The translations under genes and the position numbers were made by a program. The notes under the pieces were generated by a model. It worked only from the letters and a program-made list of their open reading frames with translations, did no database searches and was not told where the DNA came from. A DNA stretch of 53,229 bases from Salinivirgaceae bacterium (GTDB taxonomy: Bacteria; Bacteroidota; Bacteroidia; Bacteroidales; SZUA-534), in NCBI GenBank assembly GCA_017650325.1, contig JAGCFC010000170.1:1-53229 (forward strand). Reading direction: 5' to 3'. This document shows positions 42,692 to 52,256 of the stretch, piece after piece; positions within the stretch are counted from its first letter, which is position 1, and every line of letters starts with the position of its first letter.

Positions 42692-42802
42692 TTGTCTTGT
42701 TTGTTTTTCAGAATGCGCAAATGTAAGAATAAAACACAAACCGAAAACGCAAACGCTAACCATTTCATCGGCATAGCCAATGTCCTTCATTCATTGCATA
42801 AA

Positions 42803-42940
42803 AACGCCGAAGGCGTGACATATCACAGGCTGGGGTGTAAACCCCAGATGGGCGTCAGCCCATAAAATGAACGCCGAAGGTGTGGCACGAAATCATCGGC
42901 GGCATTAAACACGTAGAGACGCGATTAATCGCGCCTCTAC
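42803..42940. repeat. REP/MITE-like palindrome cluster
   Basis: Direct repeat AACGCCGAAGGYGTGRCA (42803, 42870); hairpins CTGGGG-N6-CCCCAG and ATGGGC-N4-GCCCAT; GTAG-type REP GTAGAGACGCGATTAATCGCGCCTCTAC (42913-42940). Confidence 0.75.
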
Positions 42941-42982
42941 AATTAATAATATCAATATATTACCTATTTCTAACAGAAAATT

Positions 42983-45900
42983 CTATTCCATCTCCTTTAT
43001 CATCCCCTCAACAAAACCAATTTCCTCCTCCGACAGACCGTATTTCTTATACAATTGCTTGTCTATCTCCGCTACCGATTTGCTCCAATCTATGTCGGAT
43101 TTTGCGGTGAAATCTTGAAGGGGAACAAATTGATAAACATTCTGATATAAATTTTGAGAAGTTTTCAATATACCAACGCATAACCTAAAAAATTTTGTTT
43201 TCATATATTTTTTAAGATTTTCTGCTTCATCTTTAGAAGAGAAACATCCAAATGGCAATAATGAGTCAGTACAAACACTGCCTGGTTTTCCTATATATGC
43301 CTTACCAATTATAGCGACAGGTTTCCCATCCCCTATAATACCTGCACCACCATTTGCTTTTGAAGTAAAGACTTTCCATTTATCAATATAATTAGTAGAC
43401 TTCGTAACATTTTTTCTTGAAATGTATCTAATTTCCTCGTGTGCACACCTTAATTCACTCGCTTTATCAAATCTAGTAATGTCACTTATTTTTTCGACAG
43501 TTTCTTTTTTGCCAACAATACCAAATGCATCACGACCCGTTGTAATACTAGAAACAGGTGAGAATCCGACTTTTCTTAAATGCTCAATTATTTTGTAAAT
43601 TTTATCGTCATAAATAACAATATCAATGTCCTTTTCAAACAAAGGTCTTTTGCTAACAGTATCTTTACCACCAATAACAACGTGAAATTCAGTGTCTCCG
43701 CAGTATGAATCTGCATACAAAAAGAAATTTACCCCTCCTGCTATTTCTTCTCTAAATACGTCTTTTGAATTAGGGTAACTATATATTTTTTGAAAATGAC
43801 GGTTATTTTTAAAATATTCACGCAGTTTAATAAAACTTCCATCTTGTGCTTCGGCAGTAAACCATCTTAATGGGGTTATTAAAGAAACATAGTCTGCCTT
43901 TAACTGTGTTGATATTTTTACAAAATCAGGGAATAATTGTTTAGCAAGCCCCCTTTTGTTATCCAATGTTTCCTGATATGGCGGATTTCCAACTATTGCA
44001 TTGAAATTCATATCTTTTAATTTATTTATGAATGATTCTTTTTTGTTTGAAAATAAATCGTATGACGTGAAGTCTGAAAAAATGTTCTTTATAGGCATAT
44101 TCAACAAACCGTAAACTTTGCGAGTAAACTCGTAAGTGATTGGGGAAGTCGGTATTGCATATACATTATTTCTGACTTTCTCTCCAAATCGCCGATAAAG
44201 AGCACAAGTGAATTCTCCTTGTTTTGTGGCAATGTCGAGTATTTTTGAACTGCTTGTAATTTCTTTTTCTGGTAACAGAGCAACCATCTCATCGGCCACA
44301 CGTGCTGGCGTAACAATTTCTGAAGTTCCCAAACGTCCGAATTTGCGCATTGCTGCCTCAACCCTTTCTATAGGCTTTAGTTTTTCATCGGAAATCAGTG
44401 TGTTGATATTATGAATCTTATAGTCCAACTGGCTCAAAACAAAATGGTTGCTATATTTTTGAGTCAACTCTAAAATGTTTTTATTCAACCCAACATTCTT
44501 GCAAATCCGCCGGTTGTTTTCGTTTTTGTTAATGTCAGTAATAATGTCGGTGAGAGAAGTAACTTTGCTGTCGGTCAAGAACGCATAGAACAGAATCTGC
44601 GCATAATAGGTCGCAAGTTTCTTTTTCAATTCTTTTAAGCCGTCATCAGTCAATTCCAAAGAACCCGAATTTAAACCTTTAGGGGTCTCTTTGTTTTTCC
44701 CTTTTGCATCAGGAATATCATAACCGCCATCGCCATTTTCGTTTGGTTTTATTTCCAATCCTTGCTTTGCGTCAATCGGGTTAAGTTTTTCGATAGCGGC
44801 TCGAATGGATTCATTTTCAAGTAAAGTTAAATCGGTTGGTATGCTTGCGGCCTCATCGGCAACACTTTTCGAACGCGAATATTCACGCACAGCATCCATT
44901 ACATTAACTGGTTCAACCTTCTGCAGTTTGTTTTTGTTGAGAACAATGATTGGCGAAATTTCGAGTTCCCTTCGTATGCGCTTTTCAAGTTCCGAATTGC
45001 CATTGCGGTCGGTGTTTACATTGTAAATCTGCGACTTTTGTTCTTGCATTCGAAAAACACGGTTGACATCAAAATCTACTAACAAAGTCTGCGGCTTCAT
45101 ATTGAATTTAATGGCATCCTTTCCTTCTCCATATACCTTGATATATGGGTTTTGCAGTCGGAATATTGCCTGGTCATACTCCTGTGGCGATTCTGTATCT
45201 TTCAGATAAATCATTGTGTCCCATTGCTCTACTGTGCTTCCTGTCAGCATTCGGTTCACCGTCAAAGTAATGGTCTTCTGTCCTTTAGCCTCACAAGTTT
45301 GTATTTTGTTTTTGACGTCTTTAATATCCTTATATGTTTTGTCTCCATCAACCCCTGCAATATTAACTATCTGATAATCATTTAGATTTTTAAATATTTT
45401 CTTGTTGTTAGTAATCATTTTTTCAAGAGCATCGCACGAAGCGCGAAATGGCAGAACAATAACAATATGACGGCACATCTGCCCCTGCTTTATCTTGTCA
45501 TAATCAAGAAAACCCAATACATTTTCATCCGTCTTGCTTCCATCAATAACCTTGAACAGGTCAAGAACTTCTGCTGCGTGTACAAACTTCTGGTGGGCAT
45601 TGTTCTTTTCATCTTTTGATATTGATTGTGGCTTCAGCAATTCACTCATTGCATACGAAACACCAGCATTTTTCAGCGCATTCAGTTTTTTAACTGCCGA
45701 TTGGCACGGATTGAAGGCAAAACGCACCATCTGCGGAAATCCATAGTAAGGATTGTTCCATTCTCTGACATCATCGTTGTCAATATGTTCTTTGTCCCAT
45801 TTTTCTTTATCATCCGCTATATCGGAAAACTGATAAAATGCCACAATGTCATCGTCGGTAAACTCGTCACTCATCAAGATTCGGTATGGCGTTCCCGACA

Positions 45901-46918
45901 AATGCATTGTCACATTGGCTTTCAATACTTTAAGACCATCATTAAGTTCATCCAAACCAACTTCTTTCTGACGTTCAGCCTTTAATTGGCTGGTTGTCAA
46001 TTTATAATCTTGTAGCACACGCCCGTATTCTGAAGCACGTGCTCCAAAATGTGATTCGTCAACAAGCAACAAATCAATTTTTGTCTTGAAAAGTTCATTG
46101 TGCTTGTCTTTCATCTCCTTTCCTTGCAAATCCTGCAAAGTGAGAAACAATACAATTTTTTTTCCCGCTTTTTTGCTTTCCGAAATGAACTTCTTATTCG
46201 ATTTCAAATTCTCGCTTGTTGCAAACTCGTACTGCACAAACCGTTTATGACTTTCAACTGTCTTTTTCCACTCTTCCTTCACATCGGCTTTGGCAGAAAC
46301 GACAACAACCAAATCGGCATTCATTTCATCGGCGCAACACATTGAAGTGAATGACTTGCCAAAACGCATTACTGCGTACATCAGCAACTTATCTCTTCCT
46401 TTACCTATCGCGACCTTAAATTTATCAATGGTTTCCTGTTGATTTTTGCGTGGCTTATAATCGTCTTTGCGTTCGTAAATGTAAGTTTCTGACGTATGAT
46501 TTTCATCGTAGAATTTATATTTTCCTGTATTCCTTTTCGCATCACAACAAATATCAGCAATGGCATCTTCAACATCCTTTTTTGTCGCCTTTTCAAAAAA
46601 CTCGTTTGAATAGTATTCTTTTGGGAAATGATTCTTTGTCAGACGTTTACGCTTCCTTTCATTTTCAAGAAACGTATGTACTGAATAATCACGAAAAATG
46701 CGTTTATCGTCTGTTCTGGCCGTATGGTCATAAATTCGTTTAAGTTTAGGGAAATGTCTGCGCCACTCATCAAGTCGCACTTCCACTGCACGATATGTAT
46801 CACCCACTTTCAAATAATTGGGTATGGTTTCAGTTGAAAAAGCATAAATATGCGGGTCAACGCGGCCTACAATTATGCCATCAAGAACTGTTGTGTTAAT
46901 AGAATTGACTGCATTCAT
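42983..46918 (-). CDS. Single-polypeptide restriction-modification enzyme: GIY-YIG-like nuclease, SF2 helicase, N6-adenine MTase (Eco57I-like), TRD
   Basis: HIYAF..YLKVGDT.R.VEVRL; AVMRFGKSFT, VDESHFG, LSGTP, QAIFRLQ; EIVTP, ILDIATKQGEF, IVGNPPYQ; C-terminal VPLQDFT..IDKQLYKKYGL. Confidence 0.85.
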   Translation of the reverse strand: MNAVNSINTTVLDGIIVGRVDPHIYAFSTETIPNYLKVGDTYRAVEVRLDEWRRHFPKLKRIYDHTARTDDKRIFRDYSVHTFLENERKRKRLTKNHFPKEYYSNEFFEKATKKDVEDAIADICCDAKRNTGKYKFYDENHTSETYIYERKDDYKPRKNQQETIDKFKVAIGKGRDKLLMYAVMRFGKSFTSMCCADEMNADLVVVVSAKADVKEEWKKTVESHKRFVQYEFATSENLKSNKKFISESKKAGKKIVLFLTLQDLQGKEMKDKHNELFKTKIDLLLVDESHFGARASEYGRVLQDYKLTTSQLKAERQKEVGLDELNDGLKVLKANVTMHLSGTPYRILMSDEFTDDDIVAFYQFSDIADDKEKWDKEHIDNDDVREWNNPYYGFPQMVRFAFNPCQSAVKKLNALKNAGVSYAMSELLKPQSISKDEKNNAHQKFVHAAEVLDLFKVIDGSKTDENVLGFLDYDKIKQGQMCRHIVIVLPFRASCDALEKMITNNKKIFKNLNDYQIVNIAGVDGDKTYKDIKDVKNKIQTCEAKGQKTITLTVNRMLTGSTVEQWDTMIYLKDTESPQEYDQAIFRLQNPYIKVYGEGKDAIKFNMKPQTLLVDFDVNRVFRMQEQKSQIYNVNTDRNGNSELEKRIRRELEISPIIVLNKNKLQKVEPVNVMDAVREYSRSKSVADEAASIPTDLTLLENESIRAAIEKLNPIDAKQGLEIKPNENGDGGYDIPDAKGKNKETPKGLNSGSLELTDDGLKELKKKLATYYAQILFYAFLTDSKVTSLTDIITDINKNENNRRICKNVGLNKNILELTQKYSNHFVLSQLDYKIHNINTLISDEKLKPIERVEAAMRKFGRLGTSEIVTPARVADEMVALLPEKEITSSSKILDIATKQGEFTCALYRRFGEKVRNNVYAIPTSPITYEFTRKVYGLLNMPIKNIFSDFTSYDLFSNKKESFINKLKDMNFNAIVGNPPYQETLDNKRGLAKQLFPDFVKISTQLKADYVSLITPLRWFTAEAQDGSFIKLREYFKNNRHFQKIYSYPNSKDVFREEIAGGVNFFLYADSYCGDTEFHVVIGGKDTVSKRPLFEKDIDIVIYDDKIYKIIEHLRKVGFSPVSSITTGRDAFGIVGKKETVEKISDITRFDKASELRCAHEEIRYISRKNVTKSTNYIDKWKVFTSKANGGAGIIGDGKPVAIIGKAYIGKPGSVCTDSLLPFGCFSSKDEAENLKKYMKTKFFRLCVGILKTSQNLYQNVYQFVPLQDFTAKSDIDWSKSVAEIDKQLYKKYGLSEEEIGFVEGMIKEME

Positions 46919-47946
46919 TTTATAAGACTTAAAAATGGTATTTCGGGTTCACCTTTTGAAAACCAATCTTTTATATGGCATCGAATTCCGATATGTCCTT
47001 TATTTTGATTCGTTTTGCTTTTGCAAGCAGGGCATTCTCGTTTCTTCTTCACTATAATCAGATTGCCCAAAGCATCGAATTGATTTTCTATGTCTTCTGG
47101 TGCCGCCCACTCGCACGAATCAGGCACAACGCATTTAATCCCGTCCATCTGCCACAGATTCCACGAGATTATGTAGGCTGCGTTTTCGAGCGTTTTGGTG
47201 TCTAACTGTTGTTGGAATTTGGCCTCGTAATGTTCGGCGAAGGTGTAGAGCATAGCCTCGCGGGCAAGCAGCAGATTGTCGCCCTGCCACTCAAAGCCGT
47301 AGGTTGAGTGAAGCGCATTGAAAGCTTCAACAAGCCACTCGTCGGGCGTTTCGGTGTTCTCGCCAACAATGCGCAACTTGCGGTCGAACAGACCGATACG
47401 CCGCCCAACGGGAATCAACTCGTTGCACGCAGTGGCATCGTAGCGGCTCACAAGGTACGGCGCCTCGCCGCAAGCCACTTCAAGGCGCGGCGCGCGAGTG
47501 TAGTCGGTCCAAGTTTTTCTTTCGGGGAATTCAATTTTGCCATCGGTGGGTTGCCAAATGTGTTGACCGTCGGGTGTGTCGGTTTCGGTGTTGAAAACGC
47601 CCTCACGCCCAAACCAGGCATTGTCAACAAGGTTGTTTTGTTTGTTGCAAATCCAAGCGGGCGTGAAAACCTCGGCCTTGTCGGTAATTCGCTGTTGCTG
47701 TACCTCGCGGCTCTTCTTTGCCCGCGGCTGAATCAGGTTACCGCGTGCACCCGTAATGAGCGGGGACAAAATAGGCTCGTGGTAACCATAGCCCGCCCCA
47801 AGCGACTCGTAGTCGTGTGTTGCCCAAATAATGTTCCGTTCCTCTTTATAGTAATGGCTGACAGAATGGTCTTTGAGCAGAGTTTTAAGTATTTGTGGCG
47901 ACAAGTCGAGAATATCATTCTCGAGAATGTCGATAGTTTCTGCCAT
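46915..47946 (-). CDS. R-M-associated methyltransferase N-terminal half (no NPPY motif) with Cys-rich tail
   Basis: KAEVFTPAWIC, LEVACGEAPYL, YGFEWQGDNLLLAR, SWNLWQMDG, CPAC; start at MAETID (47946); overlaps the downstream start by 4 nt. Confidence 0.8.
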   Translation of the reverse strand: MAETIDILENDILDLSPQILKTLLKDHSVSHYYKEERNIIWATHDYESLGAGYGYHEPILSPLITGARGNLIQPRAKKSREVQQQRITDKAEVFTPAWICNKQNNLVDNAWFGREGVFNTETDTPDGQHIWQPTDGKIEFPERKTWTDYTRAPRLEVACGEAPYLVSRYDATACNELIPVGRRIGLFDRKLRIVGENTETPDEWLVEAFNALHSTYGFEWQGDNLLLAREAMLYTFAEHYEAKFQQQLDTKTLENAAYIISWNLWQMDGIKCVVPDSCEWAAPEDIENQFDALGNLIIVKKKRECPACKSKTNQNKGHIGIRCHIKDWFSKGEPEIPFLSLIK

Positions 47947-48010
47947 TTCGCATTGCGTGTTTTGCGCTCGCTTATCTGTATTCAGGTGCAAACGGACAAT
48001 CCAAAACGGC

Positions 48011-48160
48011 AAAAAAATGTGGACTTGAACTTTATCCACATCCTAGGCCGTCAGAATTGCCCGTTATCACAGATAAGTCAAGCCCACGCAATAGCGCAGG
48101 CATCTTTTTTGACTTATTCGTGTGATAACATTTCTAAAATTTCTGACGTTTTAGGATATG
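48011..48160 (-). promoter_or_regulatory. Structured 5' leader: about 124-nt multi-segment hairpin overlapping a terminator-like hairpin (candidate attenuator or cis-RNA)
   Basis: Five nested paired segments at 48037-48160; alternative ATGTGGA-N11-TCCACAT-T6 at 48011-48041. Confidence 0.6.
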
Positions 48161-48206
48161 CCGAATTATCAAAGCAAACGCTTGATTAATAATATGTTAT
48201 TTAAAA

Positions 48207-49295
48207 TTTACTTTCTGTTTCTTATAGTTCGTTTAATGTTTTATATCTCTTTTAATTTGTTTTCAAATAGTTTTTTATCAGGCAGTTGCAATTGATATTG
48301 CGCCACCAGTGTTGGCGACAGGCTTCGTGGTAAAGCGTACTCCACAACTTCGTCGTCTTTGTCGTGGCACAAAAGTATGCCAATACTTGGATTCTCGTGC
48401 GGTTTCTTTACGTCGCGGTCCAATGCTTCAAGATAAAAATCCAGTTGGCCAAGGTATTCAGGCTTGAATTTGCCAACTTTCAATTCAAATGCCACCATTG
48501 CGCCAATGCCTCGGTGAAAGAACAGCAAATCGACATAAAAATCCTGGCAGCCTACTTGCAACCGAAATTCTTCCGCCATAAATATGAAATCGTTACCAAG
48601 TTCAAGTATGAACTGCTTCATATTCGCAACCAATGCTTTTTGCAATTCAGATTCGGAATGCGATTCGGGCAGCCCCAAAAACTCAAGCACGTATGTGTCT
48701 TTAATATCGGGCACGGTCATTTCTCTCACCGCTGGTGAGAGTTTTGCCGATGTCAGGCTTCTCTCATATTGAGCCGCATCAATCTGCCGTTCCAATTCTC
48801 TCTTTGTCAAATGATTACGACGGCACATATCAATGTAAAACAACCTTTCCTCGTCGGTTTTACATCTCGACATAATAGTGATATTATGTGTCCACGACAA
48901 TTCTCTCACCGCTGGTGAGAGTTTTTCGTCTGAACTATACAACTCATAGAATTGCTTCATACGCCAAAGGTTCTTGTCGCTAAATCCTTTGGCATCAGTA
49001 ATTTCAGTTGCAATGTATGCCGCCAATTGTGTTACAACACCTTTTCCCCAACCTGCTTCTTTAACTTTTATGCTTATGACCTGCCCAATCTGCCAATATA
49101 AATCAACAAGCGTTCGATTGGCCACTTCAAATACCGTCTGCCGCGCGGCACGAATTCGTTGCGCCAGAAATTCAAACACATCTTTTGTCGTTGCATCGAT
49201 ATTTGATATTTCAGTGTTCATAGTTGGACTTTTATTCCTGCAACTGCTCTAATTCATTGAGTAGTTGATTATTAGAGTTTACTTTCTGTTTCTTA
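48207..49295. repeat. 18-bp exact direct repeats flanking yhcG
   Basis: TTTACTTTCTGTTTCTTA at 48207-48224 and 49278-49295. Confidence 0.85.
48241..49221 (-). CDS. yhcG: YhcG/DUF1016 protein (N-terminal DUF1016 plus PD-(D/E)XK nuclease domain)
   Basis: LYWQIG, WGKGVV, GFSDKNLWRMKQFY, LSWTHN, KDTYVLEFL, VDLLFFHR..ELK.GKFKPEYLGQLDFYL, ENPSIGILLC. Confidence 0.92.
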   Translation of the reverse strand: MNTEISNIDATTKDVFEFLAQRIRAARQTVFEVANRTLVDLYWQIGQVISIKVKEAGWGKGVVTQLAAYIATEITDAKGFSDKNLWRMKQFYELYSSDEKLSPAVRELSWTHNITIMSRCKTDEERLFYIDMCRRNHLTKRELERQIDAAQYERSLTSAKLSPAVREMTVPDIKDTYVLEFLGLPESHSESELQKALVANMKQFILELGNDFIFMAEEFRLQVGCQDFYVDLLFFHRGIGAMVAFELKVGKFKPEYLGQLDFYLEALDRDVKKPHENPSIGILLCHDKDDEVVEYALPRSLSPTLVAQYQLQLPDKKLFENKLKEI

Positions 49296-49329
49296 CTTCA
49301 ATATTTTGTTAAAACACTGCGATTTATAT

Positions 49330-50166
49330 CTAAATCAATTTCGTTATCATTTCATCGGCTTGCAACTGCATCTTGCAGAAAGCGAACCACCGCTTGCCCA
49401 AATCCTTGATTGACGCGCCAATGTGATACACATCGTTATCGATAATCAAAAACCTGTCGTGCGACTTGGTAAAGATAGACAAATCTATTGGTTCGTACTG
49501 ATTATTGTGCTGTGCCAGCGCAACATTGAACGATGGCGATGTTTGCTGCGTGTAGATTTTCGCCTTAACACCATTGGCACGTTCGGCCAACCGCAGCAGA
49601 ACGGTTTCGTCAACATAATTGTCAATCAGCACAATGCGTTTCTTTGCCGAGCGAATCAGATTGTTGACAAAAACAAACGGTTCAAGCATTTGTCCGTCGT
49701 AGAAAATCCCTTCAACGGGCGGTAGCGATGTGCGCACAAAGAAGTCGATTTTATTTTCAGCTTCCGCCATACGGTTTTCCAATCGTTCAAAACGCTTATT
49801 GACTGAATATCCTTTTAACAAATATTCTTTCAGCACGCGGTTCGCCCATTGGCGGAATTGAGTGCCACGAATCGACTTAACTCTGTAACCTACTGATATT
49901 ATGACATCAAGGTTGTAGTATTCTATTTGCCTGATAACTTGCCGTCCGCTCTCAATTTGAACTGTTGCATTTTTTGCAACAGTTGCATTTTTGTCCAATT
50001 CCCCTTCTTTAAAAATAGCCGCTATGTGTCTTGATATTACCGATTTATCCCTGTCAAACAACAATGACATCTGATTAAGTGTTAGCCACACTGTTTCCTC
50101 GCTCAACCGCACCTCGAGTTTAACGGCCTCATCAGGTTGATATAATATGATTTCGTTTTCGGTCAT
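49330..50166 (-). CDS. RhuM-family DNA-binding protein with C-terminal PLD-like nuclease domain
   Basis: ETVWLTLNQMSLLF, EGEL, YYNLDVIISVGYRVKS.RGTQFRQWA; C-terminal LIDNY, SHDRFLIID..YHIGASIKDLG. Confidence 0.88.
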   Translation of the reverse strand: MTENEIILYQPDEAVKLEVRLSEETVWLTLNQMSLLFDRDKSVISRHIAAIFKEGELDKNATVAKNATVQIESGRQVIRQIEYYNLDVIISVGYRVKSIRGTQFRQWANRVLKEYLLKGYSVNKRFERLENRMAEAENKIDFFVRTSLPPVEGIFYDGQMLEPFVFVNNLIRSAKKRIVLIDNYVDETVLLRLAERANGVKAKIYTQQTSPSFNVALAQHNNQYEPIDLSIFTKSHDRFLIIDNDVYHIGASIKDLGKRWFAFCKMQLQADEMITKLI

Positions 50167-50197
50167 TAATTCTATTCGATACTTATCTCTTATAGCG

Positions 50198-50305
50198 AAC
50201 TACCGAGATTTTTTTCGGCAGTTGATTATCAAAATTACTTTCCTTCCCAACTTGTAAGAAACCCTTACAAGTTGGATTCGTTTCCAATTCGCCTTCGTTG
50301 TAAAA
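50198..50305 (-). pseudogene. Silent fragments of paralogous rhuM segments, each centred on a palindrome
   Basis: Translates as FYNEGELETNPTCKGFLQVGKES versus the gene's IFKEGELDKNATVAKNATVQIES; second palindrome at 50198-50223. Confidence 0.7.
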
Positions 50306-50312
50306 AGGCTAC

Positions 50313-50320
50313 CAAATATA
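50313..50320 (-). promoter_or_regulatory. Bacteroidota -7 element, likely promoter of the rhuM-yhcG-RM unit
   Basis: TATATTTG, just downstream of the upstream gene's terminator. Confidence 0.55.
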
Positions 50321-50336
50321 AAAACAAAATGAAAAC

Positions 50337-50368
50337 AAAAAAAGGCCCGCAACTTTCGTCACGAGCCT
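50337..50368 (-). terminator. Intrinsic terminator
   Basis: Minus strand AGGCTCGTGAC-GAAA-GTTGCGGGCCT followed by a T run. Confidence 0.8.
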
Positions 50369-50414
50369 GGCATAACAGAGAAATATAAACCTCATTTCAA
50401 TGCAGAAACAATCC

Positions 50415-51140
50415 TTACTGCATCTTCTGCGAGAAATGTATTGTCGGGTTGTCAGTCAAATCAAGGCCCACGTTAGGCACTTTGAATCCCGATTTATCAA
50501 AGAAACTCTGCAAGTCGTTCAAATACCTCACCGCATAACCAGCCGAAATGGGATATTTGCCTGATTTATAATCTTTCGGACAAGTGAAACCGTCAATGCC
50601 GACTGCAGCGAACCACGCTTCCAAATCGCCCTCGTCCTCCATTGCAATAAGCACGCTTTTAAACTGCAGATAACCATAAACCGACACATCCATCAGCTTC
50701 GAAGTGCCCCATATTTCCGAGTACCACTCCTCAAACGTTGTGTCTTCGGGAACCGGGTTCTGGAAAGCGGAAAGTCTCTCTTCGAGCAGCACTTTGAGCC
50801 TGGCGAGTTCTTCGTCAAAACCAACAGATTTCCAATATTTTACCGCAAATTTGTTCGCAATAATCTCTTCCTGCACACTGCCAACACTTTTGCCGTAATA
50901 GTCGAGAATGCAGTGCGAGTACTCGTGCGCCACATTGTACCAATGGAAATAAAAATCGAACTTGTTCTGCACATCGTCATCCCCGAAAAACTGTTTGAAC
51001 GCTTCCTGTTGCTCGGCATTACCTCTTTCATATTGGCCGGTGAAAATCTTGTAATCCAAATTGTTGTCTTTGTTTGCCTCCTGAGCAAAAAGCAACGCGG
51101 GAGCCAATAAAATCGCAAATGCTAAAAATGTCTTTTTCAT
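50415..51140 (-). CDS. Exported hypothetical protein with HEXXH zincin-like motif
   Basis: Signal peptide LFA|Q; VAHEYSH..EEIIANKFA; start at MKKTFL (51140). Confidence 0.65.
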   Translation of the reverse strand: MKKTFLAFAILLAPALLFAQEANKDNNLDYKIFTGQYERGNAEQQEAFKQFFGDDDVQNKFDFYFHWYNVAHEYSHCILDYYGKSVGSVQEEIIANKFAVKYWKSVGFDEELARLKVLLEERLSAFQNPVPEDTTFEEWYSEIWGTSKLMDVSVYGYLQFKSVLIAMEDEGDLEAWFAAVGIDGFTCPKDYKSGKYPISAGYAVRYLNDLQSFFDKSGFKVPNVGLDLTDNPTIHFSQKMQ

Positions 51141-51353
51141 AAAATCATTATTAAAACCACCCCAAAGACGTACCGTTTTCCCAAATGTTACTCCCAAATT
51201 CCGATATTAATCGCAACCAAACTCATATCCCTTATGCCTTGTGCCTTATGCCTAACCCCCAACACCTCTTAAAACAATGTTTATAAAATCATATTTTTTT
51301 AGTCTTTACGCCATAATCGGTTTATATCAAAATATGTATTTTAGCACGTTGTT

Positions 51354-52256
51354 ATGGAAGAAGAAACCAAAATGAAGTACAGAATATTAGTCACAGGAGC
51401 CAACGGGCAATTAGGAAACGAAATACGCTGTCTGTCATCGAAATATACCGATTACGAGTATGTGTTTACCGATGTTGCGGAGTTGGACATAACAAATCTG
51501 AGTTCACTCAACGAATTCTTTCAGAAGAACGGCAAGTTCGATTTTCTGATCAACTGCGCCGCCTATACCGCAGTTGATGCCGCAGAGACTAATCAGGAGC
51601 TTGCTTTCAAGCTGAACACCACGGCCGTGGACATGCTGGTTGAGATGGCTGGCAAATACGGATTTTTCCTTGTTCAGATTTCGACCGACTACGTGTTCGA
51701 TGGAGAGAAGAACCGGCCTTACGACGAAGACGATGTGCCGATTCCGAGTTCGGTGTATGGCAAGACCAAACGCGAAGCCGAGCACTTGGTTTTCTATTCC
51801 GACATAAACGCCATTGTTATCCGCACGGCGTGGCTCTACTCAACATTCGGAAAGAATTTTGTGAAGTCGATGATAAAATACGGCACCGAGCGCGATGAAC
51901 TGAACGTGGTGTTCGACCAGGTGGGAACGCCAACCTACGCCTACGATTTGGCCGATGCCATTCTGCAGATTCTACCGCAGTTGCAGGCCATGCCGAAACC
52001 TTACACCGACATTTTCCATTATACCAACGAGGGCGTGTGCAGCTGGTATGACTTTACACAGCACATCCTTCGCCACGAAAACATTGATTGTAAGGTGAAT
52101 CCGATACGCAGCGAGCAATACCCGACACCGGCAAAGCGTCCGGCATTCTCGGTGCTCGACAAGTCGAAAATCAAGAACAAATTTAATATCACTATTCCGT
52201 ATTGGACTGACAGTCTTGATGTTATGTTGAATAAGTTAAAAAAGAGTAATGTATAA
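51354..52256 (+). CDS. rfbD: dTDP-4-dehydrorhamnose reductase
   Basis: LVTGANGQLG, INCAAYTAVD, ISTDYVFDG, YGKTK, DQVGTPT, AKRPAFSVL. Confidence 0.96.
   Translation: MEEETKMKYRILVTGANGQLGNEIRCLSSKYTDYEYVFTDVAELDITNLSSLNEFFQKNGKFDFLINCAAYTAVDAAETNQELAFKLNTTAVDMLVEMAGKYGFFLVQISTDYVFDGEKNRPYDEDDVPIPSSVYGKTKREAEHLVFYSDINAIVIRTAWLYSTFGKNFVKSMIKYGTERDELNVVFDQVGTPTYAYDLADAILQILPQLQAMPKPYTDIFHYTNEGVCSWYDFTQHILRHENIDCKVNPIRSEQYPTPAKRPAFSVLDKSKIKNKFNITIPYWTDSLDVMLNKLKKSNV

Follow-up and report, generated by a model that had tools for sequence, protein, structure and literature searches.

A conserved palindrome in the codons of RhuM-type winged-helix genes and its spare copies in a bacterial defence island

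A rhuM-type gene of a Salinivirgaceae bacterium carries in its codons, directly after the predicted helix-turn-helix, a perfect 25-bp palindrome, and three further palindromes with the same AACT..AGTT ends lie in the non-coding DNA on either side of the gene. The locus is part of a 53,229-nt contig (JAGCFC010000170.1, assembly GCA_017650325.1), which was analysed over its whole length and is here called the window. Why should a gene keep such a symmetry within its coding sequence, and what are the additional copies? An earlier note, made from the letters of the window, had proposed that the segment is a functional unit at the level of DNA and had offered three roles for it: (a) donor cassettes that diversify the protein by gene conversion, (b) operators bound by RhuM-family proteins, or (c) a cruciform recombination hotspot. 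We find that the in-gene palindrome is a real DNA signal and that the extra copies are mostly leftovers of older gene copies.

The palindrome in RhuM-type genes

All four palindromes have the letters and positions that the earlier note gave them, and its distances to the rhuM and yhcG start codons are correct (Table 1). Palindromes with AACT..AGTT ends (arms of 10, loops of 3-7, mismatches ≤2) number 25 in the 3.22-Mb genome, and four of them fall within this 1.06 kb, where ~0.008 would be expected. Five distinct perfect sites with arms of at least 10 occur in the 53-kb window, two of them being the rhuM-region sites. Folded as single strands, the two perfect sites reach z-scores of -3.6 and -5.6 (1/200 and 0/200 shuffles as good) and the two imperfect ones -1.7 and -1.8 (11/200 and 10/200), the minimum-energy fold of the 49242 site not using the described pairing. 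The cluster is real and its two perfect members far exceed chance; its two imperfect members taken alone are weak evidence. The cores of the four are all different, and the 50198 and 49242 copies have ten letters in common on their upstream side. Perfect copies of the design in the genome lie in rhuM or dinD-like genes, or are terminators. A dispersed repeat of the repetitive extragenic palindrome (REP), miniature inverted-repeat transposable element (MITE) or Rickettsia palindromic element (RPE) type was rejected on the low genome count, and an invertase, shufflon or tyrosine-recombinase site because partner cores are not identical and no recombinase domain was found in the five island genes.

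The 25-bp palindrome is the local copy of a dyad-symmetric DNA element found in nearly all close RhuM-type winged-helix genes at the same codons. A scan for relatives, with one genome per species, gave at least 598, of which the closest 80 loci were fetched and 87 sequences analysed. These loci come from Bacteroidota, Clostridia, Spirochaetes, Proteobacteria, a Cyanobium, Planctomycetota, a chlamydial metagenome-assembled genome (MAG) and an archaeal MAG. Within this set of nearest relatives, 82 of 87 RhuM N-terminal genes form at least nine Watson-Crick pairs with no more than one internal mismatch at the same codons, the exceptions (L039, L046, L057, L061 and L037) having 5-8 pairs; an uninterrupted perfect stem of at least 9 bp is present in 62/87. 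The encoded peptide falls into 26 classes (e.g. TVA..ATV, VVA..ATT, TVR..RTV and NVH..HIA), one class of palindrome being offset by one base relative to the reading frame. The seven rhuM paralogues of the 3.22-Mb genome all carry a stem at the same codons after the EGEL motif, with differing cores. Metagenome contigs of other organisms match the window at 49945-49986 only (~41 nt, ≥85%) and are unlike it on both sides, so the palindrome is far better conserved than its flanks; a conserved in-gene element explains such matches of only ~40 nt between unrelated metagenomic contigs and genes of this kind.

The palindrome is kept at the nucleotide level: its arms change together, and its third-codon bases are held at A or T whatever the composition of the genome. 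Whatever peptide they encode, the codons after EGEL remain palindromic, the two members of a pair changing together, which bears out the suggestion that the segment is a unit of DNA. Across the 87 genes the mean longest perfect stem is 9.9 bp, against 4.2 bp after synonymous codon resampling (p<0.01 in 51/87), and no stem exceeds 8 bp in 1068 control windows of 16 codons taken elsewhere in these genes. Symmetry of the protein was rejected as a cause: in the AlphaFold2 model of RhuM (mean predicted local distance difference test score, pLDDT, 87) the peptide forms a single beta-strand (residues 63-72) that opens the wing behind helices 30-37 and 41-53, and the signal is carried by synonymous sites. 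The tandem-duplication look of KNATVAKNATV is likewise not general, relatives reading for example KNSTVANFATV.

Pairing holds for 85.9% of cells in the 87-row alignment and for 64.5% in shuffles, and 239 cells (76 in shuffles) have changed on both sides; neither observed value is reached in 500 shuffles. Sliding the partner by 1-3 columns lowers pairing to 27-44%. Four core pairs are paired in 85/85 distinct rows with 20-26 double changes each and no single-side changes, and the 843 core cells include 799 Watson-Crick, 7 G:T and 20 A:C combinations with no strand bias. Although the covariation is strong, G:T combinations are rarer than A:C and one-sided changes are near zero, and a structured RNA of the Rfam type was rejected on these grounds; an Rfam search of 48000-51500 at E-values up to 10 returned chance matches only, none of them relevant. 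A stem in the messenger RNA that slows or regulates translation just after the helix-turn-helix, or that marks a processing site, would suit the fixed position relative to the domain boundary and the stability of the predicted stems (mean -13.5 kcal/mol with RNA parameters). Such a hairpin is nevertheless improbable, as the sense strand does not tolerate G-U pairs or, almost without fail, one-sided changes, the stems are not stronger in GC-rich genomes, no Rfam family matches and a sense-strand U-run follows the stem in 0/87 genes. A -1 frameshift at the A-rich loop was discarded because the slippery-like run lies within the loop and hence has no downstream stem.

The evidence to which we give most weight in deciding between a DNA signal and a neutral repeat is the G+C content of third codon positions (GC3). 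That of the hairpin codons is ~0.20 and stays flat while the GC3 of the genes ranges from 0.12 to 0.87 (slope -0.03, r -0.03), whereas a control block, the YNLDVIISVGYRV codons, tracks its gene (slope 1.18, r 0.83). Where GC3 is ≥0.6 (17 genes), G or C occupies 18/108 four-fold sites inside the hairpin codons versus 856/1086 outside. The register in which the codons pair would allow a GC-rich palindrome for the same peptide, so the A/T lock is not a coding constraint; mere stem stability would favour G/C, so the lock points elsewhere, namely to a constraint on the sequence itself or to a need for an easily melted dyad. Gene 32 of Gordonia phage Sidious (L149; GC3 0.80) has lost the dyad (8/10 pairs), and its codons at that place still mostly end in A or T.

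These data bear directly on the idea that the palindrome has no function and perpetuates itself, template switching repairing mismatches between the arms and selection only keeping the palindrome harmlessly weak. Published work shows that template switching makes the arms of short inverted repeats alike and leaves compensatory double changes (PMC5941160, PMC8794818), and the palindrome stays perfect in decaying relics (50247-50275 and the L023 leader). A repeat maintained by template switching only should drift with genome composition, and the flat course observed argues against neutral self-maintenance, which was set aside on the GC3 data. Coding palindromes of this length are otherwise absent from these genes, as the control windows show, and the same site is kept across many phyla, so that we hold a functionless repeat to be a poor prospect.

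On the opposite strand a T-run follows the stem, and the palindrome could be a terminator of antisense transcription: a scan called 49960-49984 and 48903-48921 in yhcG terminator-like on the + strand, and at least five A occur in the 8 nt before the stem in 39/87 genes. The A-run follows composition (23/32 low-GC3 versus 1/17 high-GC3 genes) but the palindrome itself does not, which makes this role very improbable; an intrinsic terminator was rejected, since the sense strand has no U-run and the antisense runs are explained by composition.

Candidate readers of the dyad

A perfect dyad with locked wobble bases combines the symmetry and the sequence-specific conservation of an operator, and of the roles first offered, that of operator is possible for the in-gene copy. 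With a probability of roughly 40%, we suggest that a dimeric binder, in the simplest case the winged helix of RhuM itself, reads the in-gene palindrome as a double-stranded cis-site. The element would act as double-stranded DNA, read by a dimeric DNA-binding protein; the candidate reader is the RhuM winged-helix domain, the sole candidate that always travels with the element. Binding inside its own gene might throttle or tether a potentially toxic defence protein, and template switching during replication would keep the arms perfectly matched. RhuM is put forward as its own reader because of its TrmB-like fold, because the palindrome class tracks part of the domain and because the same module recombines. 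Foldseek matches of the model are to TrmBL2/TrmB (closest, E 1e-6) and to phospholipase D (PLD)/Nuc proteins, and the class goes along with sequence identity in residues 30-55 (+0.14) and 73-85 (+0.21), with no such tie for residues 1-29 (+0.005) or 86-111 (+0.02).

The same symmetry could be read as structure. A cruciform, or a hairpin in single-stranded DNA, might serve for instance as a supercoiling-sensitive block to transcription or as the substrate of a junction or hairpin enzyme. The core pairs, perfect in every distinct row and without wobble intermediates, agree with this, as do the apparent equivalence of the strands and the loops, which are always A/T-rich and, together with the A/T-locked wobble bases, would favour central melting. 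So does the unrelated YhcG family. The yhcG gene of the window has an in-frame 8-3-8 palindrome in two copies 60 codons apart (48903-48921 and 48723-48741; peptide LSPAVRE), and a perfect palindrome of at least 7 bp, highly diverse in sequence and in many cases GC-rich, occurs at the same codons in 23 of 29 homologues of YhcG from the phylum (2 ambiguous, 4 none). Arms of 10-12 bp are, on the other hand, short for stable extrusion, the A/T lock spans the whole arm and not the centre alone, it persists in genes with a broken dyad (L039, L046 and Gordonia phage Sidious) and the breakpoints of the one allele swap mapped here lie away from the palindrome. A structural element thus seems to us possible, if doubtful.

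Several observations weigh against a double-stranded site read by a dimeric binder. Symmetry at all 10-12 arm positions exceeds that of usual operators and suits a hairpin or cruciform, and the varied YhcG palindromes at one position fit structure better than a shared reader. No further dyads or regulon of the same half-site were found in the genome, half-site counts being close to background. Physical proximity within a single recombination module could by itself tie the class to the helix-turn-helix, and such linkage also accounts for the TrmB-like fold, the class linkage and the module exchange. The 50198 copy has not changed in step with the switch of RhuM class in a sister genome. In five remoter homologues from phages or satellites the dyad is perfect once (12 bp), near-perfect twice (10/11 and 11/13) and decayed twice, with the genes persisting, and the choice of the closest 80 of at least 598 relatives may have inflated the conservation figure.

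Coding palindromes also occur in further gene families. A second conserved one, with AACT..AGTT-type ends, coincides with the motif EL[SV]TxCxQLK..DGK in canonical RhuM C-terminal domains and dinD-like genes (L007, G000:C68, 3756-3780; L038, 2148-2172; L060, 768-798; L081, 2332-2356). An ORF6N-type gene beside rhuM (L013, 2788-2814) encodes NLQSQIATAK in a perfect 12-3-12 palindrome, with a second, imperfect copy in tandem behind it. One may speculate, at rather long odds, that unrelated defence-island families (here rhuM and yhcG, in other places genes of the dinD and ORF6N types) have in common a hitherto undescribed kind of cis-element, namely a perfect dyad within their own codons. The RhuM dyad would encode the wing strand, so that protein and site swap as one module, and the product or the topology of the DNA would read the dyad, keeping a toxic effector silent until infection disturbs the DNA.

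Spare copies, allele exchange and the island

Table 1. Features of the rhuM locus (positions in the window)
Feature	Coordinates	Strand	Description
Accessory island	42731..51263	.	restriction-modification enzyme, methyltransferase, yhcG, rhuM, 260-aa gene
Type IIG restriction-modification enzyme	42983-46918		downstream of yhcG, within island
Type II methyltransferase	46915-48039		downstream of yhcG, within island
yhcG	48241..49221	-	DUF1016_N and PDDEXK nuclease domain; PADLOC PDC-S02; near-full-length match; next gene after rhuM
Imperfect palindrome	49242..49266	.	2 mismatches in 10; 20 nt upstream of yhcG start; weak structure
rhuM-type gene	49330..50166	-	278-aa open reading frame; N-terminal winged-helix domain, long helix, PLD-like C-terminal domain; PADLOC PDC-S05
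Exchanged rhuM module	49752..50078	-	codons ~30-138 (helix-turn-helix, palindrome, wing); ~330 nt; other class SVVKDYLTTA in G344:C5
In-gene palindrome	49960..49984	.	perfect 10-5-10, in frame; RhuM residues 62-69, TVAKNATV; local copy of family-wide element
Imperfect palindrome	50198..50223	.	2 mismatches in 10; 31 nt upstream of rhuM start
Leader palindrome	50249-50273		perfect; extends to 12-5-12 at 50247-50275
Relic of another rhuM allele	50249..50306	-	FYNEGEL...TCKGFLQV; holds the 12-5-12 palindrome
Intrinsic terminator of upstream 260-aa gene	50343..50368	-	marks beginning of rhuM leader

The frame that contains the leader palindrome reads PFYNEGELETNPTCKGFLQVGKES and is closed upstream by a stop. 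Over 58 nt (50249-50306) it is 91.4% identical to an intact 280-aa rhuM of class NPTCKDFLQV in a genome of the same genus (G344:C26), which indicates that the 50249 copy is a relic of another allele. The earlier note was right to derive it from rhuM, but its term "silent rhuM copy" was overstated for a fragment of which only 58 nt are recognisable.

A second contig of the same genome, G344:C5, holds a syntenic rhuM-yhcG pair. There yhcG and the spacer are 99% identical to the window, the 3' part of rhuM 90-100% and its 5' end with the 50198 palindrome 79%; the module between these flanks gives no blastn match at all. A 31,967-nt metagenome contig carries the alternative form of the module, as G344:C5 does, and the 51-nt relic core with its palindrome is absent from the syntenic locus (alignment columns 119-169). 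In sequencing runs, compared as contigs, no change was seen within 49960-49984 in the three contigs (runs X13 and X14) that cover the palindrome and its flanks. Where swaps of the core had been envisaged, a tract of ~330 nt was exchanged instead, with breakpoints ~100 nt and ~200 nt away from the palindrome, which does not fit a recombination hotspot at the palindrome. Whole DNA-binding modules are therefore exchanged between alleles, the relic is dispensable and the spare palindromes are not donors.

Systems of the pilE/pilS or vlsE type have several silent copies with shared flanks, and mosaics of the expressed copy. A silent-cassette system was rejected for rhuM, where the flanks hold one 58-nt relic that the sister locus lacks and two spare copies without rhuM homology, and where no core swaps were seen. 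Rewriting of the in-gene segment by gene conversion from flanking palindromes could draw on the hypervariability of the segment and on the fact that rhuM alleles do recombine; given spare copies without flanking homology to the gene, a clear relic missing from the sister locus, a long exchanged tract and unchanged cores, it is hardly credible. The 50249 copy is what remains of an earlier rhuM after cassettes turned over in the defence island, and neither a donor nor a required part.

The two imperfect copies could be relics too, or else weak examples of the in-gene kind of site. The 50198 palindrome is kept, with changes, in the G344 sister locus, whereas the 49242 site is uninformative on conservation because it lies within the stretch that is 99% identical to G344:C5. 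No relatives of either copy beyond G344 were found among the genomes searched, look-alikes of the 50198 palindrome in 8 other genomes being coincidental matches within coding sequences of unrelated genes. Spare palindromes of the design that flank the 80 loci have three sources, namely other rhuM copies or relics, an ORF6N gene, and the motif ELSTxCRQLK, which canonical RhuM C-termini share with dinD-like genes. Five palindromes were found ≤300 nt upstream of the gene in these loci, and only one (L023) is of this design. At L008 (G000:C162, 1778-1838) two adjacent non-coding palindromes lie upstream of a nucleotidyltransferase/HEPN pair in a lipid-synthesis cluster and resemble a relic of the RhuM N-terminus (SVDKDFLLTA) and one of the ELSxxxRQLK motif (RhuM C-termini, dinD-like genes).

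By profile cut-off, the 278-aa protein is assigned to the RhuM family (PF13310) and to PDC-S05, which PADLOC lists, as it does PDC-S02 (YhcG), as a candidate defence system of a single gene. The PF13310 match (E 3.5e-24, 85.9 bits versus a cut-off of 33.7) is confined to profile positions 1-72 of 252 and covers the first 134 residues, whereas the PDC-S05 model PDLC04879 matches residues 2-276, near full length (E 2.4e-123). The C-terminal half is PLD-like and differs from the canonical RhuM C-terminus; this domain (49330-49900, residues ~150-278) has a predicted PLD/Nuc-like fold with the motif HDRFLIID, which we take to be an HxK-like motif with R replacing K. The island of ~8.5 kb fills the proC-rmlD gap, which measures 92 nt in G344. 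That genome has its rhuM-yhcG pair elsewhere, beside a different restriction system and bounded by the same end sequences as the island, 90% identical (42802-42977 and 50303-50416). Domain and PADLOC profile searches of the five island genes found no recombinase domain.

Significance and comparison with known systems

Few genes accompany restriction operons and defence islands as often as those for RhuM and YhcG, and we know of no mechanism or regulation for the phage protection given by RhuM domains. A nucleotide-level element that many phyla retain despite the base composition around it, and at a cost in amino acids, offers a handle on the control of these genes or on the sensing of infection. 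Short perfect hairpins at defence-cassette junctions are accounted for as relics of rhuM/yhcG-type genes. According to the available passages of a preprint, one RhuM-domain PDC-S05 gene lowered the plating of T7 and T5 ~1000-fold, and PDC-S02 is not among the four protecting systems in its test (10.1101/2024.09.26.614923). The rhuM and yhcG genes of the window match the PDC-S05 and PDC-S02 models, and those passages are silent on any DNA element inside the genes (10.1101/2024.09.26.614923). We found no published description of the in-gene element in the literature on RhuM, coding palindromes, PDC-S05/PDC-S02 or YhcG/DUF1016.

The predicted architecture of RhuM, a winged helix, a long helix and a PLD-like C-terminal domain, resembles that of TrmB and TrmBL2 (PDB 5bpd and 3qph). 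The resemblance is one of fold alone, with 11-14% identity and TM-scores of 0.23-0.30, and dimerisation and palindrome binding by RhuM are putative. Like the repeats homogenised by template switching, the rhuM palindromes have perfect arms, show double changes without wobble intermediates and persist in non-coding relics; the Proteobacteria study analysed non-coding repeats (PMC5941160, PMC8794818). Unlike those repeats, the rhuM site shows an A/T lock in GC-rich genes and a restriction to a single codon position of one family, which a purely mutational process leaves unexplained. The coding palindromes of Nematomorpha mitochondria are also perfect inverted repeats in coding sequence with both arms translated, but as their available description has it they are long (≤284 bp), numerous and lineage-specific, whereas that of rhuM is a single site of 25-31 bp in a prokaryotic family (PMC6649704). 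The DNA signal of rhuM can be separated from its protein by synonymous recoding, so that its role is cheap to test.

Cis-sites within coding DNA include intragenic or auxiliary operators, of which lac O2 in lacZ is one, and sites located in the gene of their own reader, as are the pac sites of phages in the small-terminase gene and the phiX174 origin in gene A. As in these cases, the recognition site in rhuM overlaps codons, constrains synonymous positions and may be read by the product of its own gene. It differs from them in its perfect symmetry over 10-15 bp and its many co-varying classes, and in that its binder is a candidate only; and where lac O2, pac and the phiX174 origin are single loci of single organisms, the rhuM site is retained throughout a gene family and in many phyla.

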